Part shown: in pieces, positions 5,190 to 63,733 of the stretch
Layout: every line of letters starts with the position of its first letter
Position numbering within the stretch: position 1 is the first letter of the stretch
NCBI GenBank assembly: GCA_964529745.1
Contig: CAZGZR010000001.1
Location: 5,590-69,589 of the forward strand
Direction of reading: 5' to 3'
DNA length: 64,000 bases
Origin: an uncultured Candidatus Bathyarchaeia archaeon
Lineage (GTDB): Archaea > Thermoproteota > Bathyarchaeia > TCS64
Translations under genes and position numbers: made by a program
Notes under the pieces: generated by a model
What the model was told of the DNA's origin: nothing
Seen by the model: only the letters and a program-made list of their open reading frames with translations
The model's database searches: none

Positions 5190-5190
5190 C

Positions 5191-7403: not shown

Positions 7404-7407
7404 TGAT

Positions 7408-8091: not shown

Positions 8092-8207
8092 TGTTAGAGT
8101 GTGTGTATCTTTTTCCACTTATTTCATCTTATATTTACAAAATAAATTTTTAAATATACTAGGATAACATGTCGCGATATTTGACACACGTCTTTGAAGG
8201 TGATTAA

Positions 8208-8885
8208 ATGGGGTTCAAAGTTTTTTACGAACAAAAATATTCGACTAGGAGCGAAAAATTAAACCCCATGAAATTAAAGGCCTTGAGCTATTTCCCATCT
8301 CCACCAAGAAAGATTCTAGATGTAGGGTGTGGGTCAGGGCTCCTCACTCAGCTATTAACTGAGAGAGGCTATGATACAATCGGCATAGACATCTCTGAGA
8401 AAGCCATAGAAAAATGTAGGGAAAAAGGGCTATTGAGTTATCAACAAGATCTGAGTGAAGAACTTCTATTTGAGGATGAAACTTTCGATTGTATTTTAAT
8501 GAGCGAGGTAATTGAACATCTAGTGGATCCTTATTTTGCTCTTCATGAGATTCATAGAGTGCTTAAGAAAAAAGGGATTCTTATTATTACTACCCCAAAT
8601 TCGTCTTTCATTACTAGAAGACTTCGTTATGTATTGGGAAAAACAAGCACGGAAACCCAAAATTTTTCGCATCTACGTTTCTTTAATGTAAGACTACTCA
8701 CTAAAATATTGCATGAGGTAAATTACGATATTCTGGATCTTAAAGGATACTTATTCAATCCCTTCAACCTTAACACAGGGTTCACTTTAGATTTTTTAAA
8801 AAATCTTCTATCTGAAAATTTTATAGTAATAACACAAAAAAGGATAGAAGATAAACCGTACAAATATCCCTTAAATAATGTATGA
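8208..8885 (+). CDS. class I SAM-dependent methyltransferase
   Basis: 225 aa. Motif I ILDVGCGSGLLT, acidic residue after beta-2 (DIS), motif II FDCILMSEVIEH. Confidence 0.75.
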   Translation: MGFKVFYEQKYSTRSEKLNPMKLKALSYFPSPPRKILDVGCGSGLLTQLLTERGYDTIGIDISEKAIEKCREKGLLSYQQDLSEELLFEDETFDCILMSEVIEHLVDPYFALHEIHRVLKKKGILIITTPNSSFITRRLRYVLGKTSTETQNFSHLRFFNVRLLTKILHEVNYDILDLKGYLFNPFNLNTGFTLDFLKNLLSENFIVITQKRIEDKPYKYPLNNV

Positions 8886-8920
8886 TTGTATTCTTTTACA
8901 CTAATATTACTGACATAATA

Positions 8921-11860: not shown

Positions 11861-11995
11861 ACTTTACTAGCTAAGTTTTGAGGGATATTTATCAGATGTT
11901 GAGTAAAAAAATAATACATACCATTCCGGTTGATTTGTAACCGTTGTTCTCAAGTCTACTTCATGAATCCTTTCATGAACATATAACTTAAATGA

Positions 11996-12679
11996 TCATT
12001 TAACGGCTTTAGCCATAATATGGTAATAATAGGGAAATACGCCTAAAATGTGTTTTTCGGGGAACATCTTAACAAATTCAATCCCCGCCTCCTCAAGGAA
12101 TTTTTTCATTTCATTCACCGAGAAATATCTTCTATATGCATATACATCCTCTCCATCACCCGTTTTCCCAGCTGTCTTAATGTAATGTTCTTTTCTACCC
12201 AACATTTCTAGTATCTTTATGGGAATCTCTGAGAAGCATTGAGTTGTAGTAAGAGCAACAAACCCACCGGGCTTTACCACTCGCCCCATCTCGGAAATAA
12301 TTTCTTTGATAACTTCCTCATTTTTTATATGAATGATTACTTGCTCAGCAAAAGCTACATCGCAGGAATTGTCGGGCAATGAGAGGTCCTGGCCTAGCTC
12401 GTTTAAAAGGTCTACTCTGGAATCTTTTACCATGAAATGGTGATATAATTCACTTGGTTCGACAGCATAGTATTTGGATACACCATATTCCTCTAATATG
12501 GCTCGTGCTATTCTTCCTACTCCAGCACCTACATCCAGAACAACATCTCCGTCTTTTATAGGAAGTATTTTAGCGATATCTCGTGCATACGCTCTGCTTT
12601 TCTCTGACATCAATATCTTTGCGTAATCATCAGCAATGCTATCGTGCATCTCCACGCTGTCAAGTAATTTCATATCCAA
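11996..12679 (-). CDS. class I SAM-dependent methyltransferase
   Basis: 227 aa. Motif I VLDVGAGVGRIA, then VEPSEL, then post-II PGGFV. Confidence 0.7.
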   Translation of the reverse strand: MDMKLLDSVEMHDSIADDYAKILMSEKSRAYARDIAKILPIKDGDVVLDVGAGVGRIARAILEEYGVSKYYAVEPSELYHHFMVKDSRVDLLNELGQDLSLPDNSCDVAFAEQVIIHIKNEEVIKEIISEMGRVVKPGGFVALTTTQCFSEIPIKILEMLGRKEHYIKTAGKTGDGEDVYAYRRYFSVNEMKKFLEEAGIEFVKMFPEKHILGVFPYYYHIMAKAVK

Positions 12680-12877
12680 CTAGATGGAGTTTGATTTTAA
12701 GAGTTAAATAATCATGTAGGTACAATCTAAAACACTCAATGATTAACCCTCAATATGGTCGAAAAAATCCGTCTCCACTATCAAAGAGATCTAATAACTG
12801 GTGATATAATATCCAGGTAACTACAGTCTACAAATATTTGTATTCGCTGGTGTTGTGGTGTAATCTCCATTCACTTA

Positions 12878-15829: not shown

Positions 15830-15928
15830 TTTTCAGTACTAAAATAATCGATTAAAGATAAAGGCAATCATTCAGCGTCTTTGTGTGAATACAACCGCAT
15901 CATTTACGTCATCAAATTTAAAATATTA

Positions 15929-16159
15929 TTATATTATGATTTTTCCTCTTTCAAATTGCTTATTGTACCATATCTTTCCACGGGATCTTCTGCTGATCTT
16001 CTTTGGATTCCCTAAGACCGCGAATTGCTTTACCATGCTGAGGGCACGGATTATTATATAACTCGTTACAGATAACACCATCTTTATAGTAGTATTTACT
16101 ATCCTGTGAGAATATACAAAGTCATCAGCTCCAAGTATTTCTCGGATATTGTATGCCAT
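15929..16159 (-). CDS. hypothetical small ORF at the island boundary (may be non-coding)
   Basis: 76-aa ORF in an AT-rich intergenic stretch. No recognisable motif. Confidence 0.15.
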   Translation of the reverse strand: MAYNIREILGADDFVYSHRIVNTTIKMVLSVTSYIIIRALSMVKQFAVLGNPKKISRRSRGKIWYNKQFERGKIII

Positions 16160-44044: not shown

Positions 44045-44533
44045 ATGATGGCGTTAAGTCGTTTATCAAAAAAAGAGAAAGCGTACATCGGTGTGGCGGA
44101 GCAGTGCACCCAGTGCGGTAAATGCTCCAGCGGGTGCCCAGCCGCCAGATACCTCGAGCTGAGGCCACGGAGGATCGCGTTGATGGCCCAGAGAGACCTC
44201 GTCGAGGAGCTTCTCGGCTCCGACATAATATGGATGTGTACCCAGTGTCATCAATGCATGGAACGCTGCCCACGGGAGATAACCCCCTACGACATCATCA
44301 TATACCTCCAGAACCTGTCGGTGCTAAAAGGCTACGACTACCCCAAGGATCTTGACATACTGTTCGCATCCATCAAGAGGTACGGAGCCATTCAGCTACC
44401 CCAGGAGATATTCGACAGGGAATTCGAGAACTACGAGAGGAGTGACCTTAACCTGCCCGACCTCGAAGGCCCAGCCGACATCGAGGGGTTCCTAAAGGGA
44501 TTGACCAAGGTTCTGGGGGAGTCGAGGCGTTGA
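44045..44533 (+). CDS. hdrC: heterodisulfide reductase subunit C
   Basis: Two ferredoxin-type motifs, CTQCGKCSSGCP and CTQCHQCMERCP. Confidence 0.85.
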   Translation: MMALSRLSKKEKAYIGVAEQCTQCGKCSSGCPAARYLELRPRRIALMAQRDLVEELLGSDIIWMCTQCHQCMERCPREITPYDIIIYLQNLSVLKGYDYPKDLDILFASIKRYGAIQLPQEIFDREFENYERSDLNLPDLEGPADIEGFLKGLTKVLGESRR

Positions 44534-45405
44534 GATACGCGCTGTTCCTAGGCTGCTGGATACACACCCAGCAGTACGGCTACGAGATGTCCACCAGAAG
44601 AACCCTGCCCAGGCTAGGGGTGGAGCTCCACGACCCCGAGGGCTTCAGCTGCTGCGGCTACCCCCTGAGGAGCTTCAACGACTCGGCGTGGTTCTACCTC
44701 TCGGCGAGAAACCTCGCGATAGCCGAGAGGGACGGCCTCGACATACTCCCACTCTGCAACGGCTGCTACGCTTCCCTGAACGAAGTGAAGCACTACCTAG
44801 ACTCCGACGAGGAGTTCAAAGACTACATCAACGAGGCTCTCAGCAACGAGGGCTTGGAGTATAGAGGAGGCAAAAGGGTCAGGCACATACTGGAGGTTCT
44901 TCACGAGGACATCGGAGTTGAAAGGATAGAAGGAGAGATAGAAAAGCCGTTATCGGGTCTAAGCTTCGCCACGCACTGCGGCTGCCACGCGTTGAGGCCC
45001 AGCGACTTCAAGTACACCGACGACCCCGAGGACCCTAGGCTGCTGGACGAGGTGACCCAGGCTCTGGGAGCCGAGACGCGCTACTACCCGGAGAAGATGG
45101 ACTGCTGCGGAGCGACCCTGGTACTAAGCAACTACGAGGCGGCTTTCAAGCTGACGGGCTACAAGATCCAAGCCATCCAGAGACGGGGCTTCGATGGACT
45201 CGTGACCAACTGCCCGTTCTGCCTCAAGATGTTCGACTCAAGGCAGGAAGCCGCTGGCAAGATCATACACGACGAGGGTCTGAGCCTCCCAGTCTTCTAC
45301 ATCACCCAGCTCCTGGGACTAGCCCTAGGCATGGACGCGTTCGAGCTGGGTCTCGATTTCAACATGAGTCCGGTTGATGAAGTGATCGATAAAATTGGAG
45401 GCTGA
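44530..45405 (+). CDS. hdrB: heterodisulfide reductase subunit B (two CCG Cys-rich domains)
   Basis: 291 aa. CCGYP and CCGATL cysteine-rich motifs. ATGA-type overlap with hdrC. Confidence 0.85.
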   Translation: MRYALFLGCWIHTQQYGYEMSTRRTLPRLGVELHDPEGFSCCGYPLRSFNDSAWFYLSARNLAIAERDGLDILPLCNGCYASLNEVKHYLDSDEEFKDYINEALSNEGLEYRGGKRVRHILEVLHEDIGVERIEGEIEKPLSGLSFATHCGCHALRPSDFKYTDDPEDPRLLDEVTQALGAETRYYPEKMDCCGATLVLSNYEAAFKLTGYKIQAIQRRGFDGLVTNCPFCLKMFDSRQEAAGKIIHDEGLSLPVFYITQLLGLALGMDAFELGLDFNMSPVDEVIDKIGG

Positions 45406-46720
45406 GGCGATGGAGTCATCCGTAGTAGTGATTGGCGGAGGAATAGCCGGAATCCAAGCCTCCCTTGACCTGGCAGACGGCGGCCACAAAGTGTACCTCG
45501 TTGAGAGGACGCCAAGCATAGGGGGCAAGATGGCGCTGCTTGACAAGACCTTCCCGACCCTCGACTGCGCCATCTGCATACTCGCGCCAAAGATGATCGA
45601 GGTATACAGGCATCCCAACATCAGGCTCCTCACCAACTCCACGGTAACCAAGGTCTCCGGGGAAGCCGGGAACTTCGCCGTGAAGGTGACAAGGAAACCC
45701 AGGTACGTTGACGAGGACAAGTGCATAGGCTGCGGCGTATGCGCCCAGAAGTGCCCCGTACGCGTGCCAGACGAGTACCAGATGGGGCTCAGCGACAGGA
45801 AAGCCATCTACCTGCCGTTCCCCCAGTCGGTGCCGCTCGTCTACAGCATCGACCCGGAGCACTGCCTCCACTTGACGCAGGGCGTCTGCGGAGCCTGCGA
45901 GAAGCTCTGCGAAGCAGGAGCCATAGACTACGACCAGAAAGAGGAGACCCTTGAGATAAATGCCTCAGGGATAGTCGTGGCCACGGGGCTTGAGCCCTTC
46001 GATCCCACCATCATCAACGAGTATGGGTACAGGAGGTACAGCGACGTCGTCACCGCCATGGAGTTCGAGCGCATGATAACGGCCACCGGCCCCACCGAGG
46101 GGGAGCTGCTCCGTCCTTCAAACAGCCAGCACCCACATAGCATCACCTTCATCCAGTGCGTCGGCTCCAGAAGCCTGCGTGAGGGATACCCCTACTGCTC
46201 CGCGGTGTGCTGCATGCACGCCACGAAAGAGGCGATGCTAGCGAAGGAGCACGCCCCGGACGTGGAGGCAACCATCTACTACACAGACCTCAGAGCCTTC
46301 GGGAAAGATTTCAGAGAGTTCATAGAGAGGGCGAAGAAAGAGTATGGAGTCAATTACGTCAGGGGTAAGCCGGGAGAGATCAGGGAAGACCCCGAGACCA
46401 AGACGCTTCAATTCTGGTACGAGGACACCCACACCGGCGACGTAAGGCTAGCAGAGACGGACATGATCGTGCTCTGCACGGCCCTCCGCCCGAGCCCTGG
46501 AAACAGGGATCTAGCCGAGACCCTGAAGGTTGATGTCGACGAGTACGGTTTCTTCACCCAGCCAAGGCCCCTCATGGAACCGGTTGGTACGACTCGTGGA
46601 GGCGTCTACGTCTGCGGATTCTGCCAAGGCCCGAAGGACATACCAGACTCCATCGCGGAGGCCAGCGGAGCGGCGTCCATGATATCGGTAATCGCTGCAA
46701 AGAGGAGGGCTGGAGGATGA
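45395..46720 (+). CDS. HdrA-like FAD-dependent oxidoreductase with inserted ferredoxin domain (lacks HdrA N-terminal domain)
   Basis: 441 aa. VVVIGGGIAGIQASLDLA FAD motif. CIGCGVCAQKCPV and CGACEKLCEAGAI [4Fe-4S] motifs. Confidence 0.75.
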   Translation: MEAEAMESSVVVIGGGIAGIQASLDLADGGHKVYLVERTPSIGGKMALLDKTFPTLDCAICILAPKMIEVYRHPNIRLLTNSTVTKVSGEAGNFAVKVTRKPRYVDEDKCIGCGVCAQKCPVRVPDEYQMGLSDRKAIYLPFPQSVPLVYSIDPEHCLHLTQGVCGACEKLCEAGAIDYDQKEETLEINASGIVVATGLEPFDPTIINEYGYRRYSDVVTAMEFERMITATGPTEGELLRPSNSQHPHSITFIQCVGSRSLREGYPYCSAVCCMHATKEAMLAKEHAPDVEATIYYTDLRAFGKDFREFIERAKKEYGVNYVRGKPGEIREDPETKTLQFWYEDTHTGDVRLAETDMIVLCTALRPSPGNRDLAETLKVDVDEYGFFTQPRPLMEPVGTTRGGVYVCGFCQGPKDIPDSIAEASGAASMISVIAAKRRAGG

Positions 46721-48873
46721 GCGAGGAAGAGGCACCCAAGATTGGGGTGTTCCTCTGCCACTGCGGAACCAACATAGCTGGGGTGGTAGACGTGCCCAGC
46801 GTCGCCGAGTACGCCCGCAAGATACCGGGGGTACACTACGTCGAGGAGAATCTCCACACCTGCAGCTCCGAGGGCATCAACCACATCAAGGAGGCCATCG
46901 TGAGGGAAGGGTTGGAGAGGGTCGTCGTAGCCGCGTGCACCCCCCGAACCCACGAACCATTGTTCATGGACGCTGTGGAGGAGGCGGGGCTCAACAGGTA
47001 CCTCTTCCAGATGGTCAACGTACGCGAACACGACTCATGGGTCCACGGGGACAGGGAAGCCGCGACGGCGAAGGCTAAACAACTGGTCCACATGGCCGCG
47101 GCGAAGGCGATGTACCTGGAGCCTGAGGAGAGGAGAAAGATCGATGTCACCCCCACATCCCTCGTGGTGGGGGCCGGCGTGGCCGGGATGACCGCCGCCC
47201 TCGCCTTGGCGGAACAGGGTTTCCAGGTCATATTGGTGGAGAAGGAGAGCGAGCCCGGGGGCCTGGTGAAGAAGCTGCACGACCTGTCTCCGACCCGCCA
47301 AGACGCCGAGGAGTTCCTCGAACCCATGATCGCCGCGGTGCGAAGCAACGACAAGATACAGCTCTACACAGGGTCAAGGGTGGTGGATGTCAGCGGATTC
47401 ATAGGCCATTTCAGCGTGGGGATCCAGACCAACCAGAACCATCTCTCCACCGAGGTGGGCACCATCATCGTGGCCACCGGCGCAGAGGTCTTCGTCCCCG
47501 AAGGATACTATTCCTATGGTGAGACACCCAACATAGTAACACAGCTAGAACTCGAGGAAAAGCTCCGTGAAGGCTCGTTCAATGTTCCAGACCATGTGGC
47601 GTTCATCCAATGCGTGGGCAGCATGGAGGAGAAAAGGAGAACGTACTGCTCCAGAATATGCTGCGGCGTGGCGCTGAAGAACGCCATACGGCTGAAGGAG
47701 CTTAACCCAGACTCGGACATCCACATACTCTACAGGCAGCTTCAGGCATACGGAATAGAGTTAGAGGAACTATACAGGGAGGCCCTAAACAAGGAAGTCA
47801 AGTTCATCAACTATATCCCGGAGAAGCCGCCGGAGGTATCAGCTCAGAGCGGCGCCATCAACCTGAGGGTCTACGACACGCTTAAGGGATCAGAGATAGA
47901 GCTGCAGCCAGGCCTGATCGTCCTCTCCACCCCCCTGGTGCAACATGAGGAGGGGCGAGCCCTGGCTAGGCTGCTGCGGGTCCCGCTGGGCTCAGACGGT
48001 TTCTTCCTCGAGGCGCACCCCAAGATGCGGCCCGTCGACTTCTCGTCTGACGGCATCTACCTCTGTGGGACGGCTCACGCCCCCAAGAACATAGCGGAGA
48101 GCGTCACCCAGGGATACGCCGCGGCCTCACGGGCGGCAATACCCATGAGGCTTGGCGAGATCAGCGTAGACGCCGTCACCGCGGTCCTCGACCCGGAACT
48201 CTGCGTAGGATGCGGGGCGTGCGCCAGTGGATGCCCCTTCGACGCCATAGAGTGGTTGCCTTCGGGGAAGCCCCACGTGGTCGAGGCCGCGTGCAAAGGC
48301 TGCGGCGTCTGCACCGTGGAGTGCCCCGTCGGCGCCATGCAGCTGAGATACTTCAAAGACAGCCAGCTGATGCCCGCCGTCAAAGCCCTCACGCAGCAGG
48401 AACCATGGATGGAGGCAGAGGACTCCTCGAACCCGACGGTGCTTGTCTTCGCGTGCAGGTGGTGCAGCTACGCCGCAGCCGACTTCGCAGGCGTGATGAG
48501 GCTAAGCTACCCGGCCAACGTCCGAATACTCATGGTGCCATGCTCCGGCAGGGTCGACTTCAGACACATCTACGAGGGACTCAGCAGAGGCGCCGACGGA
48601 GTAATAGTGACAGGATGCCTCAAGGAGCAGTGCCACTACATAGACGGCAACCTCCTCGCCGAGAGGAGGGTGGAGGTAGCGAAGAAGGCCTTAGAGGTCC
48701 TGGGCATAAGCGGCGACAGGCTGGAGATGTTCTTCTGCAGCGCCGGTATGCCCAGGGAGTTCGCGGAGTACATGCGGAGCTTCACCGAGAGAATCAAGCG
48801 GCTTGGGAAGATCGAACGCGAGACCGTCCGGGCGTTCAAGGAAGTAGAGTTGGCGACAGCGGCTGGAGGGTGA
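46717..48873 (+). CDS. hdrA: heterodisulfide reductase subunit A fused to MvhD (methyl-viologen-reducing hydrogenase delta subunit domain)
   Basis: 718 aa. N-terminal IGVFLCHCGTNIAG. FAD motif LVVGAGVAGMTAAL. Ferredoxin CVGCGACASGCP...CKGCGVCTVECP. C-terminal approx. 140 aa (VLVFACRWCSYAAADFAG...VMVPCSGRVD) is MvhD-like. Confidence 0.85.
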   Translation: MSEEEAPKIGVFLCHCGTNIAGVVDVPSVAEYARKIPGVHYVEENLHTCSSEGINHIKEAIVREGLERVVVAACTPRTHEPLFMDAVEEAGLNRYLFQMVNVREHDSWVHGDREAATAKAKQLVHMAAAKAMYLEPEERRKIDVTPTSLVVGAGVAGMTAALALAEQGFQVILVEKESEPGGLVKKLHDLSPTRQDAEEFLEPMIAAVRSNDKIQLYTGSRVVDVSGFIGHFSVGIQTNQNHLSTEVGTIIVATGAEVFVPEGYYSYGETPNIVTQLELEEKLREGSFNVPDHVAFIQCVGSMEEKRRTYCSRICCGVALKNAIRLKELNPDSDIHILYRQLQAYGIELEELYREALNKEVKFINYIPEKPPEVSAQSGAINLRVYDTLKGSEIELQPGLIVLSTPLVQHEEGRALARLLRVPLGSDGFFLEAHPKMRPVDFSSDGIYLCGTAHAPKNIAESVTQGYAAASRAAIPMRLGEISVDAVTAVLDPELCVGCGACASGCPFDAIEWLPSGKPHVVEAACKGCGVCTVECPVGAMQLRYFKDSQLMPAVKALTQQEPWMEAEDSSNPTVLVFACRWCSYAAADFAGVMRLSYPANVRILMVPCSGRVDFRHIYEGLSRGADGVIVTGCLKEQCHYIDGNLLAERRVEVAKKALEVLGISGDRLEMFFCSAGMPREFAEYMRSFTERIKRLGKIERETVRAFKEVELATAAGG

Positions 48874-48877
48874 CGGC

Positions 48878-49699
48878 GTGTACAGGATAACAAAGAAACA
48901 TGATATACCGCCAAACATCAAGATGTTCAAGGTATACGCACCAGCCGTGTCGAGGAAGGCGGAGCCAGGACAGTTCGTAATAATCAGAAGCCACGAGAGA
49001 GGCGAGCGAATACCAATTACGATAGCGGGGAAAGACCCCAATGAAGGTACAGTCACAATATACTTCGCCGAGGTAGGCGTCTCATCCAAGGAGCTTGGAG
49101 CCCTAGGTGAAGGAGACACGATACTCAACTTCTCTGGCCCCCTCGGAAACGCCATTACTGTAGAGAAGTATGGAGAGGTTCTCTGCGTCGGTGGAGGAGT
49201 ATTCCAGGGAGCTAACCACTATCTGTCAAGGAGGCTCAGCGAGGCAGGTAACGAGGTAACCAACATCATCTGTGTCCCAAGCGAAGACCACTTGTTTCTC
49301 TTGGACGAGATAAAGAACGCAAGTAAGAACGTGCTAATAGCCATCGACGAAGCTGAAAACGGAGCCGGCTTACCGGAGTTATTGGAGGGAGCGTTCAAGG
49401 AAACTCACTTTGACAGAGTCTTCACGTTTGGACCCACCTCCATGCAGAAGCTGGTAGCAGAGACAACGAGGCCGCTGAACATCCCCACCAGGGTGAACCT
49501 CTTCCCTATAATGGTGGACGGCACAGGGATGTGCGGAGCGTGCAGGGTGACGGTGGGCGGAGCGACTCGCTTCGCCTGCATAGACGGCCCAGAGTTCGAC
49601 GGCCACCAGGTCGACTTCGACGAGCTCATCTCCCGGATGAGGTACTACACCGCCCAGGAGAAGATCGCCATGGTTCTCCAGGAAAGGAGGATCGTTTGA
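48878..49699 (+). CDS. NfnA/SudB-like ferredoxin:NAD(P) oxidoreductase small subunit (FNR-like with C-terminal [2Fe-2S])
   Basis: 273 aa. FAD/NAD FNR-like fold. C-terminal cysteines GMCGACRV...FACIDGPEF. Confidence 0.7.
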   Translation: MYRITKKHDIPPNIKMFKVYAPAVSRKAEPGQFVIIRSHERGERIPITIAGKDPNEGTVTIYFAEVGVSSKELGALGEGDTILNFSGPLGNAITVEKYGEVLCVGGGVFQGANHYLSRRLSEAGNEVTNIICVPSEDHLFLLDEIKNASKNVLIAIDEAENGAGLPELLEGAFKETHFDRVFTFGPTSMQKLVAETTRPLNIPTRVNLFPIMVDGTGMCGACRVTVGGATRFACIDGPEFDGHQVDFDELISRMRYYTAQEKIAMVLQERRIV

Positions 49700-51099
49700 T
49701 GGCCTTCGACGTCCCACAGGTGGAGATGCCAAAGCAGACACCGGAGGAGCGCGTAAACAACTTCGACGAGGTCGCGCTCGGCTACACCGAGGAGCAGGCC
49801 ATCCAAGAGGCGTCCAGATGCCTCGGCTGCAAGAACCCTCAGTGCATCAAGGGATGCCCGGTCGACGTCGACATCCCGAGTTTCATACAACTCATCAAGA
49901 CAGGAAACTTCGTCGAGGCAGCCACCAAGATCAAGGAAACCAACGCCTTGCCAGCCATATGCGGCCGCGTTTGCCCGCAGGAGAACCAATGCCAGAAACA
50001 CTGCGTCCTCGGCGTAAGAGGCGAGCCTTTGGCAATCGGCAGACTTGAGCGGTTCGCCGCAGACTACGAAAGAAAGCACGGAGAACCCTCAAAACCTGTT
50101 GAAGGCAAAAAACTTGGCCGCGTGGCCGTCGTAGGAGCGGGACCCGCTGGCTTAACGGTGACAGCCGAGCTTCTGATGAAAGGCTGCGACGTGGAGGTCT
50201 TCGAGTCCCTCCACGAGGCGGGTGGAGTGCTGATGTACGGCATACCGGAGTTCAGGCTGCCCAAAGCCATAGTCCAAGCGGAGGTAGACTATGTTAAGAG
50301 CCTGGGGGCAAAGATACACCTCGACGCCACAATAGGAAGACTCCACACAGTTTCAGAGCTTTTCGAGAGAGGCTTCCAAGCGATCTTCATAGGGAGCGGC
50401 GCGGGGCTCCCCAGGTTCATGAACCTACCCGGAGAGAACCTCAAGGGGATCTACTCGGCCAACGAGTTCCTGATCAGGACCAACTTGATGAAGGCGTACA
50501 GGTTCCCAGAGTATCGGACCCCCATCACGGTGGGCAGGAACGTGGCGGTCATCGGCGGCGGGAACGTGGCCATGGACTCGGCTCGGTGTGCCAAGAGATT
50601 GGGCGCCGAGGAAGTCTACATAGTGTACCGGAGGGGCAGAGAAGAGCTCCCCGCGAGGGAGGAGGAGGTAGAGAACGCCGAGGAGGAGGGCATAATATTC
50701 AGGTTCCTCACAAACCCAGTCGGGTTCATCGGCGACGACAGAGGCTATGTCACTCAAATGGAGTGTATCAGCATGAAGCTGGGGGAGCCAGATGAATCTG
50801 GAAGGCGACGGCCCATAGCTGTGGAGGATTCAGAGTTCCTCATGGATGTAGACAACGTGGTGGTGGCGATAGGGCAGACTCCTAACCCAATCATACAGCA
50901 GACCACTAAAGGATTAGAGGCAACTAGATGGGGCACCATAGTCGTTGACGAGGATACGATGAAGACGAGTATCGACGGCGTATACGCCGGCGGGGACGTG
51001 GTGAGCGGCGCAGCAACTGTGATAAGCGCTATGGGAGCAGGCAAAAAGGCTGCTAGAGCCATCCTCGAGTATCTGAACAAGTCTCACTCGGCGACGTAA
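49699..51099 (+). CDS. NfnB/SudA/GltD-like NAD(P)H oxidoreductase (glutamate synthase small-subunit family)
   Basis: Start at the ATG overlapping the nfnA TGA (ATGA). N-terminal [4Fe-4S] pair (CLGCKNPQCIKGCP; CGRVCPQENQCQKHC). Two Rossmann motifs (VAVVGAGPAG; VAVIGGGNVAMD). Confidence 0.8.
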   Translation: MAFDVPQVEMPKQTPEERVNNFDEVALGYTEEQAIQEASRCLGCKNPQCIKGCPVDVDIPSFIQLIKTGNFVEAATKIKETNALPAICGRVCPQENQCQKHCVLGVRGEPLAIGRLERFAADYERKHGEPSKPVEGKKLGRVAVVGAGPAGLTVTAELLMKGCDVEVFESLHEAGGVLMYGIPEFRLPKAIVQAEVDYVKSLGAKIHLDATIGRLHTVSELFERGFQAIFIGSGAGLPRFMNLPGENLKGIYSANEFLIRTNLMKAYRFPEYRTPITVGRNVAVIGGGNVAMDSARCAKRLGAEEVYIVYRRGREELPAREEEVENAEEEGIIFRFLTNPVGFIGDDRGYVTQMECISMKLGEPDESGRRRPIAVEDSEFLMDVDNVVVAIGQTPNPIIQQTTKGLEATRWGTIVVDEDTMKTSIDGVYAGGDVVSGAATVISAMGAGKKAARAILEYLNKSHSAT

Positions 51100-56238: not shown

Positions 56239-56700
56239 ATGAGCGAGAAAAAGAGGCTTCTCATAGTATGCTCCAAGGGAACGCTCGACATGGCCTTCCC
56301 GCCCTTCATGATGGCGACCACTGCGGCCTCGATGGGCTGGGACGTTCACCTATACTTCACCTTCTGGGGTATGGACATTATAACGAACAGCAAGGCGTTG
56401 AAGATGTCACCGGTGGGGAACCCGTCACTGGGCATACCCAACATCGTCGGCATCATCCCCGGCATGACGGCCGTCGCGACCTGGATGATGAAGAGGAAGA
56501 TGCGTGAAAGCCACATGCCTACGCTGGAGTCCCTCATAGACATGGCGAAACAAGCCGGCGTCAAGTTCCACGCCTGTTCACCGACCATGAAGCTGGCCGG
56601 CATCACGAAAGAGGACCTCATCCCACAGTGTGACGACATCATCGGCGCGGCCACGTTCCTGGACCTGGCGGGAGACGACGCGGTGACCCTCTTCATCTAG
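56239..56700 (+). CDS. DsrE/DsrF-like (YchN-like) sulfur-relay family protein
   Basis: 153 aa. LLIVCSKGTLDMAFPPFMMATTAASMGWDVHLYFTFWGMD, typical DsrE-like fold signature. Confidence 0.65.
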   Translation: MSEKKRLLIVCSKGTLDMAFPPFMMATTAASMGWDVHLYFTFWGMDIITNSKALKMSPVGNPSLGIPNIVGIIPGMTAVATWMMKRKMRESHMPTLESLIDMAKQAGVKFHACSPTMKLAGITKEDLIPQCDDIIGAATFLDLAGDDAVTLFI

Positions 56701-56743
56701 CCACTGAGCCCAAATCAGCGGGTGTACCGAGGAAAGCACATGC

Positions 56744-57829
56744 TCAATACTTGGGGAAAGACCCATCCACCGACTCGGACCAGCCGTGGATACCCCCCTC
56801 GAGGCTCCTCAGCTTCCTGAACCCGGCGTCCTGAAGCACCCTCAACGCTCTGCAGCTTCGCACCCCGGTCCTGCAGTAAAGAACTATGTCATCACCTTTG
56901 TCCAGCTCACCCAGCCTAGCCGGCAGCTCAGGCTCCGGTATGAGCCGGGCGCCGGGGAGGCGGCAGATCTCCCACTCGAAAGGGTCTCTGACGTCGATCA
57001 GGACGAGGTTCGGGTTATCGCTGATCTCGGCCGACAGCTCGTTCGGCGAGACCACCCACTCATCGCCGAGCGCCCCGACACGGCTCCCGGAGACACCACA
57101 AAACCGCTCGTAGTCAACCAGCTCATCGATGGAAGGGTCCTCCCCGCAGATGGGGCACCCGGGATCCCTCATGACCTCCACCTCCTTGACACGCATGGTT
57201 AACGCGTTGTAGAGAAGCAGGCGCCCTATGAGGGGCTCCCCGACCCCCAGTATCAGCTTGATGGCCTCCGTCGCCTGGATGACGCCCATCACCCCCGGCA
57301 AAACCCCAAGCACCCCGGCTTCGGCGCAGCTCGGGACCGTCCCCGGCGGCGGGGGCTCCGGGTAGAGACACCTGTAGCATGGGCCTTTCTCCGCGTAGAA
57401 AACGGATGCCTGCCCTTCGAACCGGAAGACGCTGGCGTACACGTTCGGTTTCCCGAGAAGCACACACACGTCGTTGACGAGGTACCTCGCAGGGAAGTTA
57501 TCCGTCCCATCGGCCACGACGTCGTAGTCCTTGCATATCTGCGCCGCGTTGGCCGAGCTGAACGCCTCCTCATGTCTAACGACTTCGATCTCGGGGTTGA
57601 GAGCCCTCAGCCTGGCTGCCGCCGCTTCGAGCTTGGGCTCCCCCACATCGTCTGAACAGTACAGGATCTGGCGTTGAAGGTTACTATAATCGACTACATC
57701 GAAATCGACGAGCCCGATCCTGCCGACGCCGGCCGCGGCCAAGTACATTGATAGGGGAGAACCCAGGCCCCCAGCTCCTACGCATAACACGCTGGCCTCC
57801 TTGAGCCTCCTCTGCCCGTCCACCCCCAC
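56744..57829 (-). CDS. MoeB/ThiF/MoeZ-type E1-like adenylyltransferase fused to a C-terminal rhodanese domain
   Basis: 361 aa, GTG start. VLCVGAGGLGSP nucleotide motif. C-x2-C...C-x2-C zinc site. Rhodanese with active-site CRTGVRS. In frame upstream the sequence continues QEIRRYSRHLLLPGVG, so the true N-terminus is probably about 20 aa longer. Confidence 0.8.
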   Translation of the reverse strand: MGVDGQRRLKEASVLCVGAGGLGSPLSMYLAAAGVGRIGLVDFDVVDYSNLQRQILYCSDDVGEPKLEAAAARLRALNPEIEVVRHEEAFSSANAAQICKDYDVVADGTDNFPARYLVNDVCVLLGKPNVYASVFRFEGQASVFYAEKGPCYRCLYPEPPPPGTVPSCAEAGVLGVLPGVMGVIQATEAIKLILGVGEPLIGRLLLYNALTMRVKEVEVMRDPGCPICGEDPSIDELVDYERFCGVSGSRVGALGDEWVVSPNELSAEISDNPNLVLIDVRDPFEWEICRLPGARLIPEPELPARLGELDKGDDIVLYCRTGVRSCRALRVLQDAGFRKLRSLEGGIHGWSESVDGSFPKY

Positions 57830-57897
57830 CCCTGGGAGCAGAAGATGACGGCTATACCTCCTTATCTCCTGGTTCGAAAACGCGGCTGTGAAAACGG

Positions 57898-58176
57898 TCA
57901 GCCTCCGCTCACCGCCGGAATCAAAGAGACCTCGTCGTTAGAATAGAGCTCGGTGGACAGCTTCTTCAGGAAACGAAAGTCCCTTCCATTCACGTAGACG
58001 TTTATGAAGCGCCTCGGGTTTCCGTCCTGGTCGTAGAGTTTCTCGCGGAAGCCTTCCCCGTATCGGGCTGAAAGCGCCTCAAGGGCCCCGGAGACGGTGG
58101 CCGCCTCCACGGAGGTGGCCGCAGCGCCCGCGACGGATGCCAGGCTCCCGTACAGTAGAACGGTTACAGACGCCAT
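57898..58176 (-). CDS. ThiS/MoaD-like sulfur carrier protein (C-terminal GG)
   Basis: 92 aa ending ...IPAVSGG. Beta-grasp-sized. Confidence 0.7.
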   Translation of the reverse strand: MASVTVLLYGSLASVAGAAATSVEAATVSGALEALSARYGEGFREKLYDQDGNPRRFINVYVNGRDFRFLKKLSTELYSNDEVSLIPAVSGG

Positions 58177-59465
58177 CGCTCGGCCTCCAGGCTCGTTTCC
58201 CCTCTCTGGGCTCCGGTTGAAGAGTATGGGGGTGTCTCCACGTCCGCGTCTGCCTTGTTAAGTAACTCCATCAACGCGTTCAACGTTGGCTCGATGAGGG
58301 CTGGCTTGTTTAGAGACCGCTGGATGGTGTCCGCCGCCTTGAACCCGTTCCCGGTGACGGCACAGACCACCTTCTCGTCCGCCTCGAAGTAGCCCTCCTC
58401 GGCGAGCCTCTTCAGGACCGCTATCGTCACGCCTCCCGCGGGCTCGGTGAAGACGCCCTCCTTCTCCGCGACGAGCTTGATGGCCTCGAGTATCTCCTCG
58501 TCGGAGACGGCCTCCACCGTGCCGCCGGTGGCCCTGGCGTTCCTCAGCACGTAGTACCCGTCACCGGGATCGCCTATCGCCAGGCTCTTGGCCAAGGTGT
58601 GTGGGTGCTCGATGGGCCTTACGTCGTCGAGCCCGGCTTTAAACGCGTCAGCGATGGGTGCACAGCCCTCTGCCTGGGCGCCGATGAGCCTGGTGGGTTT
58701 GTCCTCAATGAGACCCACCTTCTTGAACTGCTCTAGTCCCCTATGGACGGCGCAGAAAAGCGCCCCGCTTCCCAAGGGTATGATGAAGCTGTCCGGCGCC
58801 TCCCAGCCCAGCTGTTCGCACACCTCGAAGGCGAGGGTCTTGGAGCCCTCCACGTAGTAGCTTCTTAGGTTGATGTTAGCGAAGGCCCAGCCGTAGTGTT
58901 CAGCCGCCTGCGCCGCCAGCCTGTTGGCCTGGTCATAGGTGCCGTTCACGGCGATGATGCGGGCACCGTAGACCGAGGCCTGAAGAACCTTGTTTAACTC
59001 GGTGTCGGATGGGACGAAGATGTAGCAAGGCAGCTCCGCCTTAGCCGCGTGAGCCGCAACGCTCGCCGCCAGGTTGCCTGTCGAGGGGCATCCCACCGCC
59101 ACCGCCCCGAGCTCTCTCGCCTTCGAGACGGCCACCGACGCGGGTCTATCCTTGAACGAGTTGGTGGGGTTAACCGTGTCGTCCTTGATGTAGAGGTTGT
59201 TCAAGCCCAGCTGCTTCCCGAGGTTAGCGGCCTTATGCAGTGTTGATAGACCCGTTCCCAGGTCTACTGCCGACTCGTAGCTGTTCAGGGGCAGAAGCTC
59301 CCTGTACCTCCAAATGTTTCTAGGTCGCCGTGATATCTCCTCCCTCGTCACCCTGATTCCATCTAGGTCGTATGATACCTCGAGGGGGGCGAAGCAGTTA
59401 TCACAGGCGTGTATGAGTTTCTGGGGGAAAGTTGCGCCGCATTCACGGCACACAAGCCCTTTCAC
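58164..59465 (-). CDS. threonine-synthase-like PLP enzyme with N-terminal zinc ribbon
   Basis: 433 aa. CRECG...CDNC N-terminal ribbon. PLP lysine motif NPTNSFKDR. Fold-type II PLP architecture. Confidence 0.75.
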   Translation of the reverse strand: MKGLVCRECGATFPQKLIHACDNCFAPLEVSYDLDGIRVTREEISRRPRNIWRYRELLPLNSYESAVDLGTGLSTLHKAANLGKQLGLNNLYIKDDTVNPTNSFKDRPASVAVSKARELGAVAVGCPSTGNLAASVAAHAAKAELPCYIFVPSDTELNKVLQASVYGARIIAVNGTYDQANRLAAQAAEHYGWAFANINLRSYYVEGSKTLAFEVCEQLGWEAPDSFIIPLGSGALFCAVHRGLEQFKKVGLIEDKPTRLIGAQAEGCAPIADAFKAGLDDVRPIEHPHTLAKSLAIGDPGDGYYVLRNARATGGTVEAVSDEEILEAIKLVAEKEGVFTEPAGGVTIAVLKRLAEEGYFEADEKVVCAVTGNGFKAADTIQRSLNKPALIEPTLNALMELLNKADADVETPPYSSTGAQRGETSLEAERWRL

Positions 59466-59620: not shown

Positions 59621-60787
59621 TCAACCCCACAGGAGGAGGCGTAGCCCACCGATGGTGGCGACGTACCAGTAATTAACCATCTTCTTCAGCAGCCTCGCTA
59701 GTAAGCCCCTGAACTTGAAGCCAAAGAGGACACCTACGGCGTCGGACCTGCCCAGGGTCACTATCTCCCCAACCCTCTCGAACCGGTACTCCTCCATGCG
59801 GCTCCCTCTCACCTGGGCCAGTATGTTGTGCGCCACCACACCTCCCTGAGCCATGGCGATGTGCGCGGTGGGGGGCTGAGGCTGGCCCTCCGAGTCCACG
59901 GCACACGCAGAGTCGCCGGCTACGAACACTCTCTCGTGACCCACGGCGCGGCAGAACTTGTCCACCGCTATCCTGCGGCCGTTGACCTCGAAGCCCAGGC
60001 CACAGGCGGGATCATGCTCCACGCCGCCCGTCCAGATGAAAAGATCTTTTTTTAAGACTAGGCCGCTCCTCGTCTCCAACCGGTCCTCCCCAACACGCGT
60101 CACGGGATCGTTGAAGACGAACTCCGCGCCTCTACCCTCCAGGTTCCTCTGAGCCTCCAAGCTGAGGCTCTTTTCCCACCCTGGGAGAATGGAGGGAAAA
60201 GCCTCAACCACAGTCAACAGCTTCTCCGGGGGAGCGAGGCCGTTCTCCTCGTATAGACGGGGGAGCCAGTCGAGAAGCTCGCCAGCCAGCTCGACGCCGC
60301 TGAACCCCCCGCCCCCGATTACTATCTTGACCGAGTCTCCAGTCTCCCTCGTCTCCGTGAACAGCTGAAGTATCCTAGACCTGATCTCCAGAGCCTGTTC
60401 GTAGCTCCCCAGGGTGAGGCTGTGCCCCCGTATCCCCTCGATTCCAAAGTAGGCTGGGTGGCTCCCGAGGCAGACGGCGAGCAGGTCATAACCCATCTCC
60501 CCCTCGTCTGTGATCACCAGGCCCCTATCCGGGTCTACGGACTCCACCTTCACCCTCCTGAACTCGGTCTCATCCATATCGACTATTTTCTCGAGGGGGA
60601 CGATTATATCCTCTTCCTGGAACTCGGCGTTGCAGACCTCATGTATCCGGTAGAGGTACTGATGGTAATCGTTCTCGTCTACTAGGACCAGCCTCCATGC
60701 ATCGGGCAGCCTCCTCTGCAGCTCTTTGACGATCTTTATCCCAGCGACACCTGCTCCGAGAACCACGACGCTTTTCGGCGACTCCAT
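59621..60787 (-). CDS. FAD-dependent pyridine nucleotide-disulfide oxidoreductase (NDH-2 / sulfide:quinone oxidoreductase family)
   Basis: Start set at MESPKSVVVLGAGVAG (the table ORF extends 45 hydrophobic codons upstream). Second Rossmann motif IVIGGGGFSGVELAGEL. Confidence 0.65.
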   Translation of the reverse strand: MESPKSVVVLGAGVAGIKIVKELQRRLPDAWRLVLVDENDYHQYLYRIHEVCNAEFQEEDIIVPLEKIVDMDETEFRRVKVESVDPDRGLVITDEGEMGYDLLAVCLGSHPAYFGIEGIRGHSLTLGSYEQALEIRSRILQLFTETRETGDSVKIVIGGGGFSGVELAGELLDWLPRLYEENGLAPPEKLLTVVEAFPSILPGWEKSLSLEAQRNLEGRGAEFVFNDPVTRVGEDRLETRSGLVLKKDLFIWTGGVEHDPACGLGFEVNGRRIAVDKFCRAVGHERVFVAGDSACAVDSEGQPQPPTAHIAMAQGGVVAHNILAQVRGSRMEEYRFERVGEIVTLGRSDAVGVLFGFKFRGLLARLLKKMVNYWYVATIGGLRLLLWG

Positions 60788-60975
60788 ACACACATACTCC
60801 ATCAGAGAATCAATGGCTACCCGCATAGTGAGGGACGTAATTACACCCATCAGTAAAACCATACAATAAAAACCTACATACACGGCACACCAACGCTTCG
60901 ACTCAATGCATGCGGTCAACATATGTATGCCCGGTGCGCGGAGACTTTATCTCACCAATCCGTCAAGAATAATCC

Positions 60976-61860
60976 ATGAGGCCTGACCAAGACCTGCTCC
61001 AGGGAGCCATCGATCTCCATCTCCACGCCGGGCCCAGCGTCTTCCCGCGTCTCATGGACGCCGTCGATACGGCGAATGCCGCGAGGGCCTCCGGAATGAG
61101 GGGGATCGTGATCAAACACCACCACACCCCATCCGTAGATCGGGGGTACCTCGTCCACAGGGCCGTGCCGGAGGTCGAGGTGTATGGCGGGGTCACGCTC
61201 AACTACGCCGCAGGCGGGCTGAACCCCTACGCCGTGGACGCCGCCCTCAGGCTCGGCGGAAGGATGGTCTGGATGCCGTCGGTTGATGCCCGTAACCACA
61301 AGACCCACTTCGGCGAGCTCGGGAAATACGGCTCACGGCTAGACTACGACAAGCCCGGCATATACAGCGATGCCCCGGGCATCACCATACTCGACGAAGG
61401 CGTCCTCAAACCGGAGATCGGTCAGATACTGGACGTCGTGGCGGACCACGACGCGGCCGTAGCCACCTCCCACCTAGACCTGGAGGAGTCTAGGGCCCTG
61501 GTGGAGGAGGCCCGGAGGAGAGACATCAAGACCGTGGTGACCCACGTCAACTTCGTCACCGCCTCTCTGCCGCCGGAGGACCAGAGGTGGATGGCGGACA
61601 AGGGCGCGTACTTGGAGCTATGTTACTCTTCCCTGTCGCCGGCATGGAGAAGCACGTCCATCGACGAGGTAGCCGAGACCGTGAGAAGCGTTGGCCCCGA
61701 GCACTACGTTCTAGCCAGCGACCTAGGCCAGATCCATAACCCCGCACCGCCGGAGGGCCTCCGCATCTACATCAGCCTGCTCCTGGAGCGTGGACTAGAC
61801 CCCGAGGAAATCAGGGTCATGGTCAAGGATAACCCAGAGAAAATTCTTGGTCTTGATTAG
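60976..61860 (+). CDS. metal-dependent TIM-barrel hydrolase (amidohydrolase-like)
   Basis: 294 aa. N-terminal IDLHLHAGPS (HxH metal ligands). Later conserved His and Asp. Confidence 0.45.
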   Translation: MRPDQDLLQGAIDLHLHAGPSVFPRLMDAVDTANAARASGMRGIVIKHHHTPSVDRGYLVHRAVPEVEVYGGVTLNYAAGGLNPYAVDAALRLGGRMVWMPSVDARNHKTHFGELGKYGSRLDYDKPGIYSDAPGITILDEGVLKPEIGQILDVVADHDAAVATSHLDLEESRALVEEARRRDIKTVVTHVNFVTASLPPEDQRWMADKGAYLELCYSSLSPAWRSTSIDEVAETVRSVGPEHYVLASDLGQIHNPAPPEGLRIYISLLLERGLDPEEIRVMVKDNPEKILGLD

Positions 61861-61925
61861 CTCACGTAAACTCGTTGTTTGCTAAGCATCAGCTTCGAAG
61901 ATTAGGGGGATCGACTCGCCTCAGG

Positions 61926-62579
61926 CTAGATGACGAGCCGCGTCGCCTCGACGCCGTCACCATACACCATCCTCAGGTACCCTAATATGGTGGACAGATG
62001 CTCGTCAACCATCTCATGGCTTATCCCCACCGGACACCACGCGAAGTAGAGGGGGTTCAATGTCTCCATACCGATGGACGTCTTCGCCGCCGGCCCGAAG
62101 AGGACGCTGGCCAACACCCCCTCATCGTCCCTGAGCACTACGTCGTTCTTCACGAGGACCTGCTTCTTGCCGTTGAGCTTGACGTATTCCTCGCCGTCGT
62201 CGGCGAGATCATAGACAAGCTCCCCCTGGATTGCGTCCCTGTCGTGCCCAGAGGTAAGGATCCTGTCCTCCAGCTCGGCCATGAACATGCAGTCCACGTG
62301 GGTTGAAACCTGGGGGAACGTCCTCCCCTTCTTGACGCTCTTGATCTGATACTCGATGGGGTAGGTCCTCCCCCACCTGTCGAAGTACCCTGCGTACGCC
62401 TGGATCACAGAGTCATCCTCGGGGTCCGGGTATTCATCCCTGATCCTACTCTCTAGCTGGCGTTTGGCCTGCTCTAGGCTCGAGTGCTTCTTCTTGTTCT
62501 GCTGGTTGGCTATGGTGATGCAACCAAAGACGGCTGTCGGGTACATCATTTTGAGTTCGGGTCTGACCTTGAAATCCAT
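61926..62579 (-). CDS. B3/B4 domain protein (phenylalanyl-tRNA synthetase beta-subunit-like, COG3382-type)
   Basis: 217 aa. Pattern ...YVKLNGKKQVLVKNDVVLRDDEGVLASVLFGPAAKTSIGMETLNPLYF... matches solo B3/4 domain proteins. Confidence 0.45.
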   Translation of the reverse strand: MDFKVRPELKMMYPTAVFGCITIANQQNKKKHSSLEQAKRQLESRIRDEYPDPEDDSVIQAYAGYFDRWGRTYPIEYQIKSVKKGRTFPQVSTHVDCMFMAELEDRILTSGHDRDAIQGELVYDLADDGEEYVKLNGKKQVLVKNDVVLRDDEGVLASVLFGPAAKTSIGMETLNPLYFAWCPVGISHEMVDEHLSTILGYLRMVYGDGVEATRLVI

Positions 62580-62687
62580 TCCATGTAATATTATGGCTTT
62601 AACTAAGAAATATCTATGGATGGCTGCCTCCCCCCGCGTCTAAATGGTTGAAAAGGCTCCTCGGAACTGTGACTTAGCGAGTCGAGC

Positions 62688-63206
62688 CTAGGGATACTCT
62701 ATCTCCACGCCCACCTCGTTCCTCCGAAGGAACCCGGGCACATAGGGAGGGTTGTACTGCATCAGGAAGGGAGCGCCCCTGGCCTCGATGCCCTCCGCCT
62801 CCAGCCACCCTAAGAGCTTCTCCTTCTGTCTCCTGACGCTCTCCTTCCAAGCGAAGCCCCTGAACCTGACGGTGGCGACAACCCGTTCAGGCACCGTGTT
62901 GATGGTGACCCTCTCGTCCGTGGGCTCGGGCACCGTCTCGGCGTCATACTCCGAGGGCACCATGAAGCTCATGGATCCGGTGTCGCTGAACACCGGGGAA
63001 GTCATGGCGATCTCAGTGGATGTGATGACCGGGCTGGTCATTGCTATCTTGGACCTCGAACGGTTGGCTCCGGTGATATACTTGAATAGGACGCTGAACC
63101 GTGACGGAGCGTCCTCGACGGTGGCGACAAGCATAGCCGGGTACCTCCTGATCTCATACTCCCCATCGCCCCGTAACACGGTGTACTTCGCCGTCTCCAC
63201 CATCAC
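62688..63206 (-). CDS. SOUL/HBP family heme-binding protein
   Basis: 172 aa. Internal IAMTSPV duplicate and C-terminal YNPPYVPGFLRRNEV characteristic of the SOUL family. Confidence 0.7.
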   Translation of the reverse strand: MMVETAKYTVLRGDGEYEIRRYPAMLVATVEDAPSRFSVLFKYITGANRSRSKIAMTSPVITSTEIAMTSPVFSDTGSMSFMVPSEYDAETVPEPTDERVTINTVPERVVATVRFRGFAWKESVRRQKEKLLGWLEAEGIEARGAPFLMQYNPPYVPGFLRRNEVGVEIEYP

Positions 63207-63733
63207 CTGATCCTCTCCTTGAACTCCTTCCTAACCTTCCTAAGTTTTGGCTCGATGACGTACCGGCTGTAGCCCTGACGCCTGTTCCTCTCGTAGTATT
63301 TCCTGTGGTAATCCTCGGCCTCGTAGAAACCCGTGAAGGGCTCCACTTTGGTAACGACGGGTAATTTGAAGACGTTGCTCTCGTTCAACTCGGCTACGAA
63401 CTCCTCGGCGATCCTTCTCTGAGCCTCGTCGTTGTAGAATATGACGGAACGGTACTGTGGGCCCACGTCGGCGCCCTGCCTGTCGAGCGAGGTCGGGTCG
63501 TGCATCGTGAAGAAGACCTCCAGTATCTCCCTGAAAGATATGATCTCGGGGCTGAAGGTGACCTGCACAACCTCGACGTGGCCCGTGGTGCCCGTAACCA
63601 CCTGCCGATACGTCGGGTTCTCAACGTGTCCACCGGAGTAGCCGGGGACGACCTTGAGCACCCCCTCGATCTCCATGAAAACGGCCTCGGTACACCAGAA
63701 ACAGCCGCCGCCAAGAGTAGCCACCTCCACCAT
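63203..63733 (-). CDS. msrA: peptide methionine sulfoxide reductase MsrA
   Basis: 176 aa. Active-site GGGCFWCTEAVF. 4-nt overlap with the SOUL gene. Confidence 0.9.
   Translation of the reverse strand: MVEVATLGGGCFWCTEAVFMEIEGVLKVVPGYSGGHVENPTYRQVVTGTTGHVEVVQVTFSPEIISFREILEVFFTMHDPTSLDRQGADVGPQYRSVIFYNDEAQRRIAEEFVAELNESNVFKLPVVTKVEPFTGFYEAEDYHRKYYERNRRQGYSRYVIEPKLRKVRKEFKERIR

Follow-up and report, generated by a model that had tools for sequence, protein, structure and literature searches.

What is the role of a threonine synthase-like (ThrC-like) enzyme whose gene is packed against those of a sulfur carrier and of the enzyme that would activate it? This question is raised by a locus in a contig stretch of 64,000 nucleotides (nt) from a Bathyarchaeia archaeon, hereafter the window, whose genes we read from the list of open reading frames (ORFs) and from Pfam and NCBIfam profile searches. 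Three minus-strand genes encode a ThrC-family enzyme dependent on pyridoxal phosphate (PLP), a small ThiS/MoaD-like carrier protein and a MoeZ/MoeB-type E1-rhodanese. We consider it probable, from sequence comparison, that they form a MetM/MetO-type homocysteine (methionine) operon. This assignment draws on the domains of the three proteins, the recurrence of the triad, the linkage of enzyme and carrier, S-adenosylmethionine (SAM) riboswitches ahead of orthologous genes, phylogeny, hidden Markov model (HMM) scores, active-site residues and the literature. By analogy, the ThrC-like enzyme is most likely a homocysteine synthase, predicted to depend on O-phosphohomoserine and on the thiocarboxylate of the carrier.

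Gene linkage and regulation

The gene for the MetM-like enzyme (433 amino acids; 58164-59465, minus strand; PALP, E=3e-75) contains the motif NPTNSFKDR and is followed by the gene for the MetO-like sulfur carrier (92 amino acids; 57898-58176, minus strand). The carrier is a ThiS/MoaD beta-grasp protein (ThiS PF02597, E=3e-13) with a free C-terminal Gly-Gly, ending in ...IPAVSGG with the TGA stop right after. Next on the same strand comes the E1-rhodanese, whose full open frame spans 56744-57901 (ThiF, E=7e-83; Rhodanese, E=6e-21) and which holds the motif GAGGLG, two CxxC pairs (CYRC and CPIC) and the rhodanese loop CRTGVRS. The initial annotation had placed four genes here, these three and a DsrE-like gene; all four are present where it had put them, and Pfam and NCBIfam confirm their domains. 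The tight packing that it had described also holds, since the three minus-strand genes abut without a spacer and the ORF list gives a 13-nt overlap between the genes of the PLP enzyme and the carrier.

A scan of GTDB species genomes gave 589 relatives of the ThrC-like protein, of which we took the best 80 for the distribution, and we counted linkage over 85 related loci. The best 80 of the 589 span Bathyarchaeia, Nitrososphaeria, Hadarchaeota, Hydrothermarchaeota, Methanohalophilus, Chloroflexota, Actinomycetota/Acidimicrobiales, Binatia, Nitrospinota and others. A ThiS-like ORF stands directly downstream of the ThrC-like gene in 82 of the 85 loci, the three exceptions belonging to Chloroflexota, and an E1 is present in 63. 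The arrangement of ThrC-like and ThiS genes is far beyond chance. Together with the E1, they recur as a triad amid otherwise unrelated flanking genes in other Bathyarchaeia contigs (L003, L004 and L171-L173). When all neighbouring ORFs of 89 loci were clustered, no further partner was found to recur across phyla (JAMM/Mec, thrB and metE were sought), and the clusters gave lineage-specific synteny only, such as histidine genes in Nitrosopumilales.

This linkage bears on a simpler explanation, namely that the gene encodes a housekeeping threonine synthase lying by chance beside a MoaD/MoeB pair for the molybdopterin or tungstopterin cofactor. The carrier does pass the cutoff of the archaeal MoaD subfamily (NCBIfam MoaD_arch, 51.5 bits; cutoff 49.5), and neither a separate canonical thrC nor another homocysteine route occurs within the 64-kb window, the only part of the genome covered. 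We nevertheless hold a chance neighbourhood to be extremely improbable, as the adjacency recurs across domains of life with the genes overlapping or abutting.

Regulation of the orthologues points in the same direction. SAM riboswitches govern methionine and SAM metabolism, not threonine synthesis. In Nonomuraea gerenzanensis, the MetM-like gene, whose product is 48.8% identical to the window protein, has a SAM-I riboswitch (RF00162, 68.7 bits) just ahead of it and is followed by a gene for a 91-amino-acid carrier ending in IIPAVAGG. The same riboswitch precedes the orthologue in 15 of 17 further bacterial loci, on the same strand and 16-500 nt upstream (56-88 bits), which brings the count to 16 of the 18 bacterial loci scanned (among them L005 at 5816-5957, L031 at 4691-4866 and L052 at 4686-4800). 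The genes behind these riboswitches are all named 'threonine synthase' by every source, and the presence of SAM-dependent rather than threonine-related regulation ahead of them speaks against a housekeeping threonine synthase.

The combination of a ThrC-like enzyme with a carrier protein, which had first been described as poorly characterised, matches the MetM/MetO pathway of Streptomyces albulus, described in 2024. According to the GapMind preprint of 2026 (bioRxiv 10.1101/2024.10.14.618325), this is a thiocarboxylate pathway from O-phosphohomoserine to homocysteine (Hasebe et al. 2024, Appl Environ Microbiol) with MetO as the carrier, MoeZ as ligase, Mec as hydrolase and MetM as the MetO-thiocarboxylate-dependent homocysteine synthase, a threonine synthase homologue that is often misannotated as such. 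In S. albulus, metM has a SAM riboswitch upstream and metO adjacent to it (PMC12172450).

An enzyme with a thiocarboxylate donor could also be a CysO/CysM-like synthase that makes cysteine or another thio-metabolite from O-phosphoserine or from another phosphorylated or acylated amino acid. The chemistry would be analogous to that of CysM/CysO/MoeZ in Mycobacterium tuberculosis, O-phosphoserine serves as substrate for some ThrC relatives, cysteate synthase among them, and the window protein has a weak match to TIGR03844 (89 bits; cutoff 325); substrate specificity, moreover, is not readable from sequence. We still judge such a synthase unlikely. The orthologues under SAM-riboswitch control have all the clade-specific active-site residues of the window protein, and the characterised member of the family acts on O-phosphohomoserine, according to the same preprint (bioRxiv 10.1101/2024.10.14.618325). 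The initial annotation had left the choice between homocysteine, cysteine and a thio-cofactor as the product of an alternative route; homocysteine is the part that stands, and the other two are disfavoured because the orthologues are under SAM regulation.

The carrier and the E1 might, alternatively, mainly form a SAMP/UbaA-type system for protein conjugation and tRNA thiolation, with service to the PLP enzyme being secondary. Archaeal E1s are known to serve several carriers; the SAMP1 model gives the carrier 57.8 bits (cutoff 60), and that of the SAMP-activating E1 UbaA gives the E1 321 bits (cutoff 450). Both scores are, however, under their cutoffs, as are those of the E1-rhodanese on the NCBIfam equivalogs MoeZ (453 bits; cutoff 647) and MoeB (458 bits; cutoff 633). 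In phylum after phylum, moreover, the carrier gene shares an operon with that of the PLP enzyme, and its bacterial counterparts sit inside SAM-riboswitch operons; the carrier matches the 91-amino-acid protein encoded 3' of the riboswitch-controlled Nonomuraea gene at E=2e-12. A primary SAMP/UbaA function is therefore very unlikely in our view. Such a role could coexist with a main role in homocysteine synthesis, yet it leaves the operon unexplained.

The PLP enzyme and the threonine synthases

Profile searches would assign the window protein to threonine synthase. It scores over both NCBIfam cutoffs of that name, TIGR00260 (296 bits; cutoff 167) and NF006050 (337 bits; cutoff 303), so annotation pipelines name the gene accordingly, and a housekeeping function draws support from these scores. 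All tested members of its clade, including the riboswitch-controlled ones, are nonetheless over the TIGR00260 cutoff, which thus does not discriminate. We also tried NF006050 (PRK08197) as a MetM-specific model and rejected it, since the clade scores 262-337 bits around the cutoff of 303 and a ThiS-less haloarchaeal paralogue reaches 281. Solved ThrCs match the window protein at E=5e-72 to 2e-41 with 30-40.5% identity, compared with 48-98% (median 52%) for the clade members and 48-58% for the riboswitch- or ThiS-linked orthologues.

We built a neighbour-joining tree of 96 sequences, consisting of the window protein, 85 relatives, five solved ThrCs (2zsj, 1uim, 6cgq, 2d1f and 1e5x) and five ThiS-less zinc-ribbon paralogues. 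The window protein and its 85 relatives are split from both the solved ThrCs and the ThiS-less paralogues in 100 of 100 bootstraps. Phylogeny against bona fide threonine synthases had been proposed as a check with the initial annotation, and it places the ThrC-like protein in a distinct clade that does not cluster with them. A comparison of two HMMs, one made from the riboswitch-linked bacterial orthologues alone and the other from the solved ThrCs, agrees with the tree: the window protein scores 582 bits on the former and 294 bits on the latter, and the margin is at least 222 bits in all 70 clade members that were not used for training.

The differences extend to the active site. The window enzyme has the fold of canonical class-I ThrC together with its SFKDR motif, S-T-G-N loop and EG.KT motif, and O-phosphohomoserine is probably the substrate of both. 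Fifty-two positions are invariant in the clade as well as in the ThrCs, including the S-T-G-N loop and the PLP lysine, K105 in NPTNSFKDR, which aligns with K61 of Thermus ThrC. We called a position clade-specific when at least 95% of the clade agree on one residue and all the bacterial ThrCs agree on another. There are 15 such positions, including (window/Thermus ThrC) L132/T88, N199/S155, R201/N157, Y204/R160, S233/N188 and G303/W249. The residues expected of a canonical ThrC at these six sites are thus replaced clade-wide (T88L, S155N, N157R, R160Y, N188S and W249G), and the window enzyme further differs from canonical ThrC in its linkage to a sulfur carrier and in an extra zinc ribbon. The zinc-ribbon segment, placed by alignment at codons 6-24 (CRECG...C..C; 59394-59450, minus strand), comprises C6, C9, C21 and C24 at the N-terminus; C6, R7, E8, C9, G10, C21 and C24 are invariant in the alignment. 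Its CxxC...CxxC pattern is found in 86 of 86 clade members and in none of the solved ThrCs.

The separation of the clade at 100/100 and the 15 differing positions add to the case against a housekeeping threonine synthase. Because gene linkage, regulation, phylogeny and active-site residues agree, we conclude on these sequence grounds that the ThrC-like PLP enzyme is not one. The proposal of thiocarboxylate-dependent sulfur incorporation with a ThrC-family PLP partner, made at the outset, gains support from the clade split, the riboswitches and the downstream ThiS-like gene.

The ThiS-less zinc-ribbon 'thrC' paralogues belong to neither the ThrC nor the MetM clade. Two lie on haloarchaeal megaplasmids (L086 at 2986-4245 and L087 at 2977-4236) and the others are L088, L089 and L090. 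They are 32-38% identical to the window protein, have divergent active-site motifs (e.g. CFKDR and STGNA) and are often adjoined by amidohydrolase genes.

By homology, the operon would work as follows. The E1 domain would adenylate the terminal glycine of the carrier Gly-Gly with ATP, and a persulfide on the rhodanese Cys in the CRTGVRS loop would convert the acyl-adenylate to the carrier thiocarboxylate. The ThrC-like PLP enzyme would bind O-phospho-L-homoserine and, as threonine synthase does, eliminate the gamma phosphate. The carrier thiocarboxylate would then attack C-gamma in place of the attack of water at C-beta, and homocysteine would finally be released from the carrier. Mec-type trimming seems unnecessary since Gly-Gly is followed at once by the stop codon in the carrier gene, and a regular-expression search of the window returned no JAMM motif.

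Several points weigh against a MetM/MetO operon. T88, N154, S155, R160 and N188 of Thermus ThrC would line a phosphate site that steers water to C-beta; a search of the literature on the roles of Arg160, Asn188 and Thr88 of this enzyme found nothing. If this assignment holds, those residues on which the fate of the intermediate depends have been reshaped in the clade, with the binding of substrate and PLP kept. In keeping with an archaeal origin, the window lacks a riboswitch (one tRNA is the sole match in an Rfam scan of it), and the link to methionine is carried over from bacterial orthologues with 48-53% identity. Genes for a homoserine kinase, a methionine synthase or a JAMM/Mec protein are absent within the 64-kb window. 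The link to S. albulus MetM/MetO runs through a proxy, the Nonomuraea orthologue (48.8% identity), and a homologue search seeded with that orthologue gave only Streptosporangiales in the top 120. Finally, MetM homologues have been reported in cyanobacteria, and the Microcystis 'ThrC', 51.6% identical to MetM, acted in vitro as a threonine synthase and deaminase with no clear MetM function (PMC12172450). These two activities suggest that some clade members may be promiscuous.

The E1 gene, its fusions and the neighbourhood

The first canonical start of the E1-rhodanese is a GTG at 57829, from which the listed ORF of 361 amino acids (56744-57829, minus strand) begins. Upstream of it the frame stays open to the thiS stop, and about 24 codons (57830-57901) encode the conserved EIRRYSRHLLLPG N-terminus. 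No normal start takes in the conserved RY.R[QH] motif: the GTG at 57829 lies past it, and from the thiS stop up to the RYSRH motif of this E1 no frame contains an ATG, GTG or TTG.

In relatives that are 78-85% identical, the E1 starts with ATG, GTG or TTG 4-5 nt past the thiS stop, and the Gly-Gly codons (GGAGG) stand at Shine-Dalgarno distance from that start. In both the window and L001, its closest relative and an independent assembly, the start is replaced by GTT within the sequence GGAGG-CTGACC-GTT-TTC, and the junction is identical in the two. The ancestral GTG of the relatives thus reads GTT in the window, and a CTG overlaps the TGA stop of thiS. Over the 24 startless codons the window and L001 differ by six synonymous and six non-synonymous changes, with no stop and no indel, and the RYSRH motif is preserved through synonymous changes. 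This pattern of substitution suggests that the segment is still translated, by near-cognate reinitiation or a similar route. Either this CTG or the GTT may be the near-cognate start, used through termination-reinitiation; a frameshift fusing the E1 to the carrier is a less likely route. For a -1 frameshift at GGC-TGA in particular, which we set aside as unlikely by reasoning alone, there is no slippery sequence and tRNA-Gly would re-pair poorly. A metagenome scan with the E1-rhodanese for more startless junctions gave only MoeZ-like genes of 56-62% identity.

The startless E1 gene is a minor curiosity. We regard as tentative, and on balance doubtful, the joint proposition that the E1-rhodanese is made only via non-canonical translation and that MetM/MetO is the main, hitherto unrecognised homocysteine route of Bathyarchaeia and ammonia-oxidising archaea. 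If it were true, the non-canonical start would couple synthesis of the E1 strictly to that of the carrier. In function, the startless gene would then stand midway between two states: carrier and E1 as separate genes, as in other Bathyarchaeia, and the two fused in frame, as in Thaumarchaeota and Hadarchaeota.

Such fusions, with carrier and E1 in a single ORF (...ILPAVAGG-SDELSKKELDKFSRQ...), occur in about 35 Nitrososphaeria and two Hadarchaeota loci, with the junction pattern ...PAVAGG-S[DE]EL...[RK][FY]SRQ.... Examples directly downstream of the MetM-like gene are found in L044 (6196-7536), L061 (6210-7523) and L017 (6238-7359). A carrier-E1 fusion has been reported in 61 of 98 Thaumarchaeota and read as MoaD-MoeB for molybdenum cofactor (Moco) synthesis (PMC11237513), a reading that would favour a housekeeping threonine synthase beside cofactor genes. 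The position directly behind the MetM-like gene instead suggests that the fusions serve methionine biosynthesis rather than Moco. A fusion of this kind implies a cleavage step after the Gly-Gly.

The fourth gene of the initial annotation encodes a DsrE2-like putative sulfur-relay protein (153 amino acids; 56239-56700, plus strand) with a strong match to PF13686 (DrsE_2, E=2e-37) and 139.8 bits on NCBIfam DsrE2 (cutoff 210). It had been called divergent and part of the sulfur-carrier module. Its orientation is in fact convergent with the E1 gene, the two lying tail-to-tail with their 3' ends 43 nt apart, and the association is not conserved, as no more than four independent loci out of the 85 have a DsrE2-like gene in the vicinity of the operon. 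The copies near metM-like genes in L001, L009, L010 and L076 keep the Cys of the HACSPT motif. The protein, an uncertain member of the module, may conceivably supply the rhodanese domain with sulfur in an accessory role. In L076, a Hydrothermarchaeota metagenome-assembled genome, a TusA-like domain (GLSCPKP) is fused to the DsrE2-like protein at 9669-10508, about 4 kb from the MetM-like operon.

Upstream of the operon, window positions 59621-63733 hold, in order, genes for an NDH-2/SQR-like flavoprotein, a DUF6282 protein, a B3_4-domain protein, a SOUL haem-binding protein and MsrA. This order is syntenic with L001 and not with more distant MetM loci, and the flavoprotein and DUF6282 genes are common only to that closest relative. 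Elsewhere in the window, positions 44045-51099 encode a heterodisulfide-reductase-like cluster of a 4Fe-4S protein, a CCG-domain protein and two HdrA-like flavoproteins, the second of which is fused to an MvhD/FlpD domain; a GltD-like Fer4_20/Pyr_redox_2 protein comes after it. An island of low GC content at about 5000-16000 (30-42% GC, against 55-62% elsewhere) lies inside a polysaccharide/glycosyltransferase region and holds two ORFs of about 980 amino acids with no Pfam match (8921-11860, minus strand; 12878-15829, plus strand).

Related systems and meaning for annotation

The locus shares with the S. albulus MetM/MetO/MoeZ(/Mec) system a ThrC-homologous PLP enzyme, a ThiS-like carrier gene directly downstream and a MoeZ-type E1-rhodanese, and the type of SAM riboswitch reported for S. 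albulus metM recurs ahead of actinomycete and other bacterial orthologues, which share 48-53% identity with the window protein. It differs in having an archaeal host, no riboswitch, a startless E1 gene and an adjacent DsrE2-like gene. Further differences from S. albulus are an E1-rhodanese gene within the operon, a carrier made with a terminal Gly-Gly and the lack of a JAMM gene in the vicinity.

Krishnamoorthy and Begley reportedly described in 2011 a protein-thiocarboxylate methionine biosynthesis in Wolinella succinogenes with HcyS, HcyF, HcyD and MetY (reference 34 of PMC5764234). As in that HcyS system, a ThiS-like thiocarboxylate made by an E1 would give its sulfur to a homocysteine-forming PLP enzyme. 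The Wolinella partner, MetY, is said to be an O-acetylhomoserine sulfhydrylase of fold-type I with O-acetylhomoserine as its substrate and with the JAMM protease HcyD in the cluster, whereas the partner in the window belongs to the ThrC family of fold-type II and is accompanied by no protease. The CysO/CysM/MoeZ/Mec system of M. tuberculosis likewise combines a carrier thiocarboxylate, a MoeZ-type E1-rhodanese, a fold-type II PLP enzyme and an O-phospho amino acid. It makes cysteine from O-phosphoserine, and its PLP enzyme belongs to the CysK/CysM family, not to the ThrC family. The SAM regulation of the window orthologues, unlike that system, points to methionine.

We take the operon to be a new archaeal case of the 2024 pathway rather than a system of a novel type, and the main value of the finding lies in correcting annotation and metabolic reconstruction. 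Genes of the MetM clade are systematically misannotated as threonine synthase: all of the top 120 named actinomycete orthologues bear that label, and no MetM-specific model surfaced in NCBIfam release 20. The 15 clade-specific positions offer a simple sequence test to tell MetM-like enzymes from ThrC. The homocysteine pathway was explicitly noted as missing in organisms such as Acidimicrobium in 2018 (PMC5764234), and relatives of the Acidimicrobium group here carry SAM-riboswitch-controlled copies. Because MetM-like genes are called threonine synthase, a homocysteine route goes unseen in metabolic reconstructions of Bathyarchaeia, and the number of threonine synthases may be set too high. Both errors extend to ammonia-oxidising Thaumarchaeota, Hadarchaeota, Chloroflexota and Acidimicrobiales.

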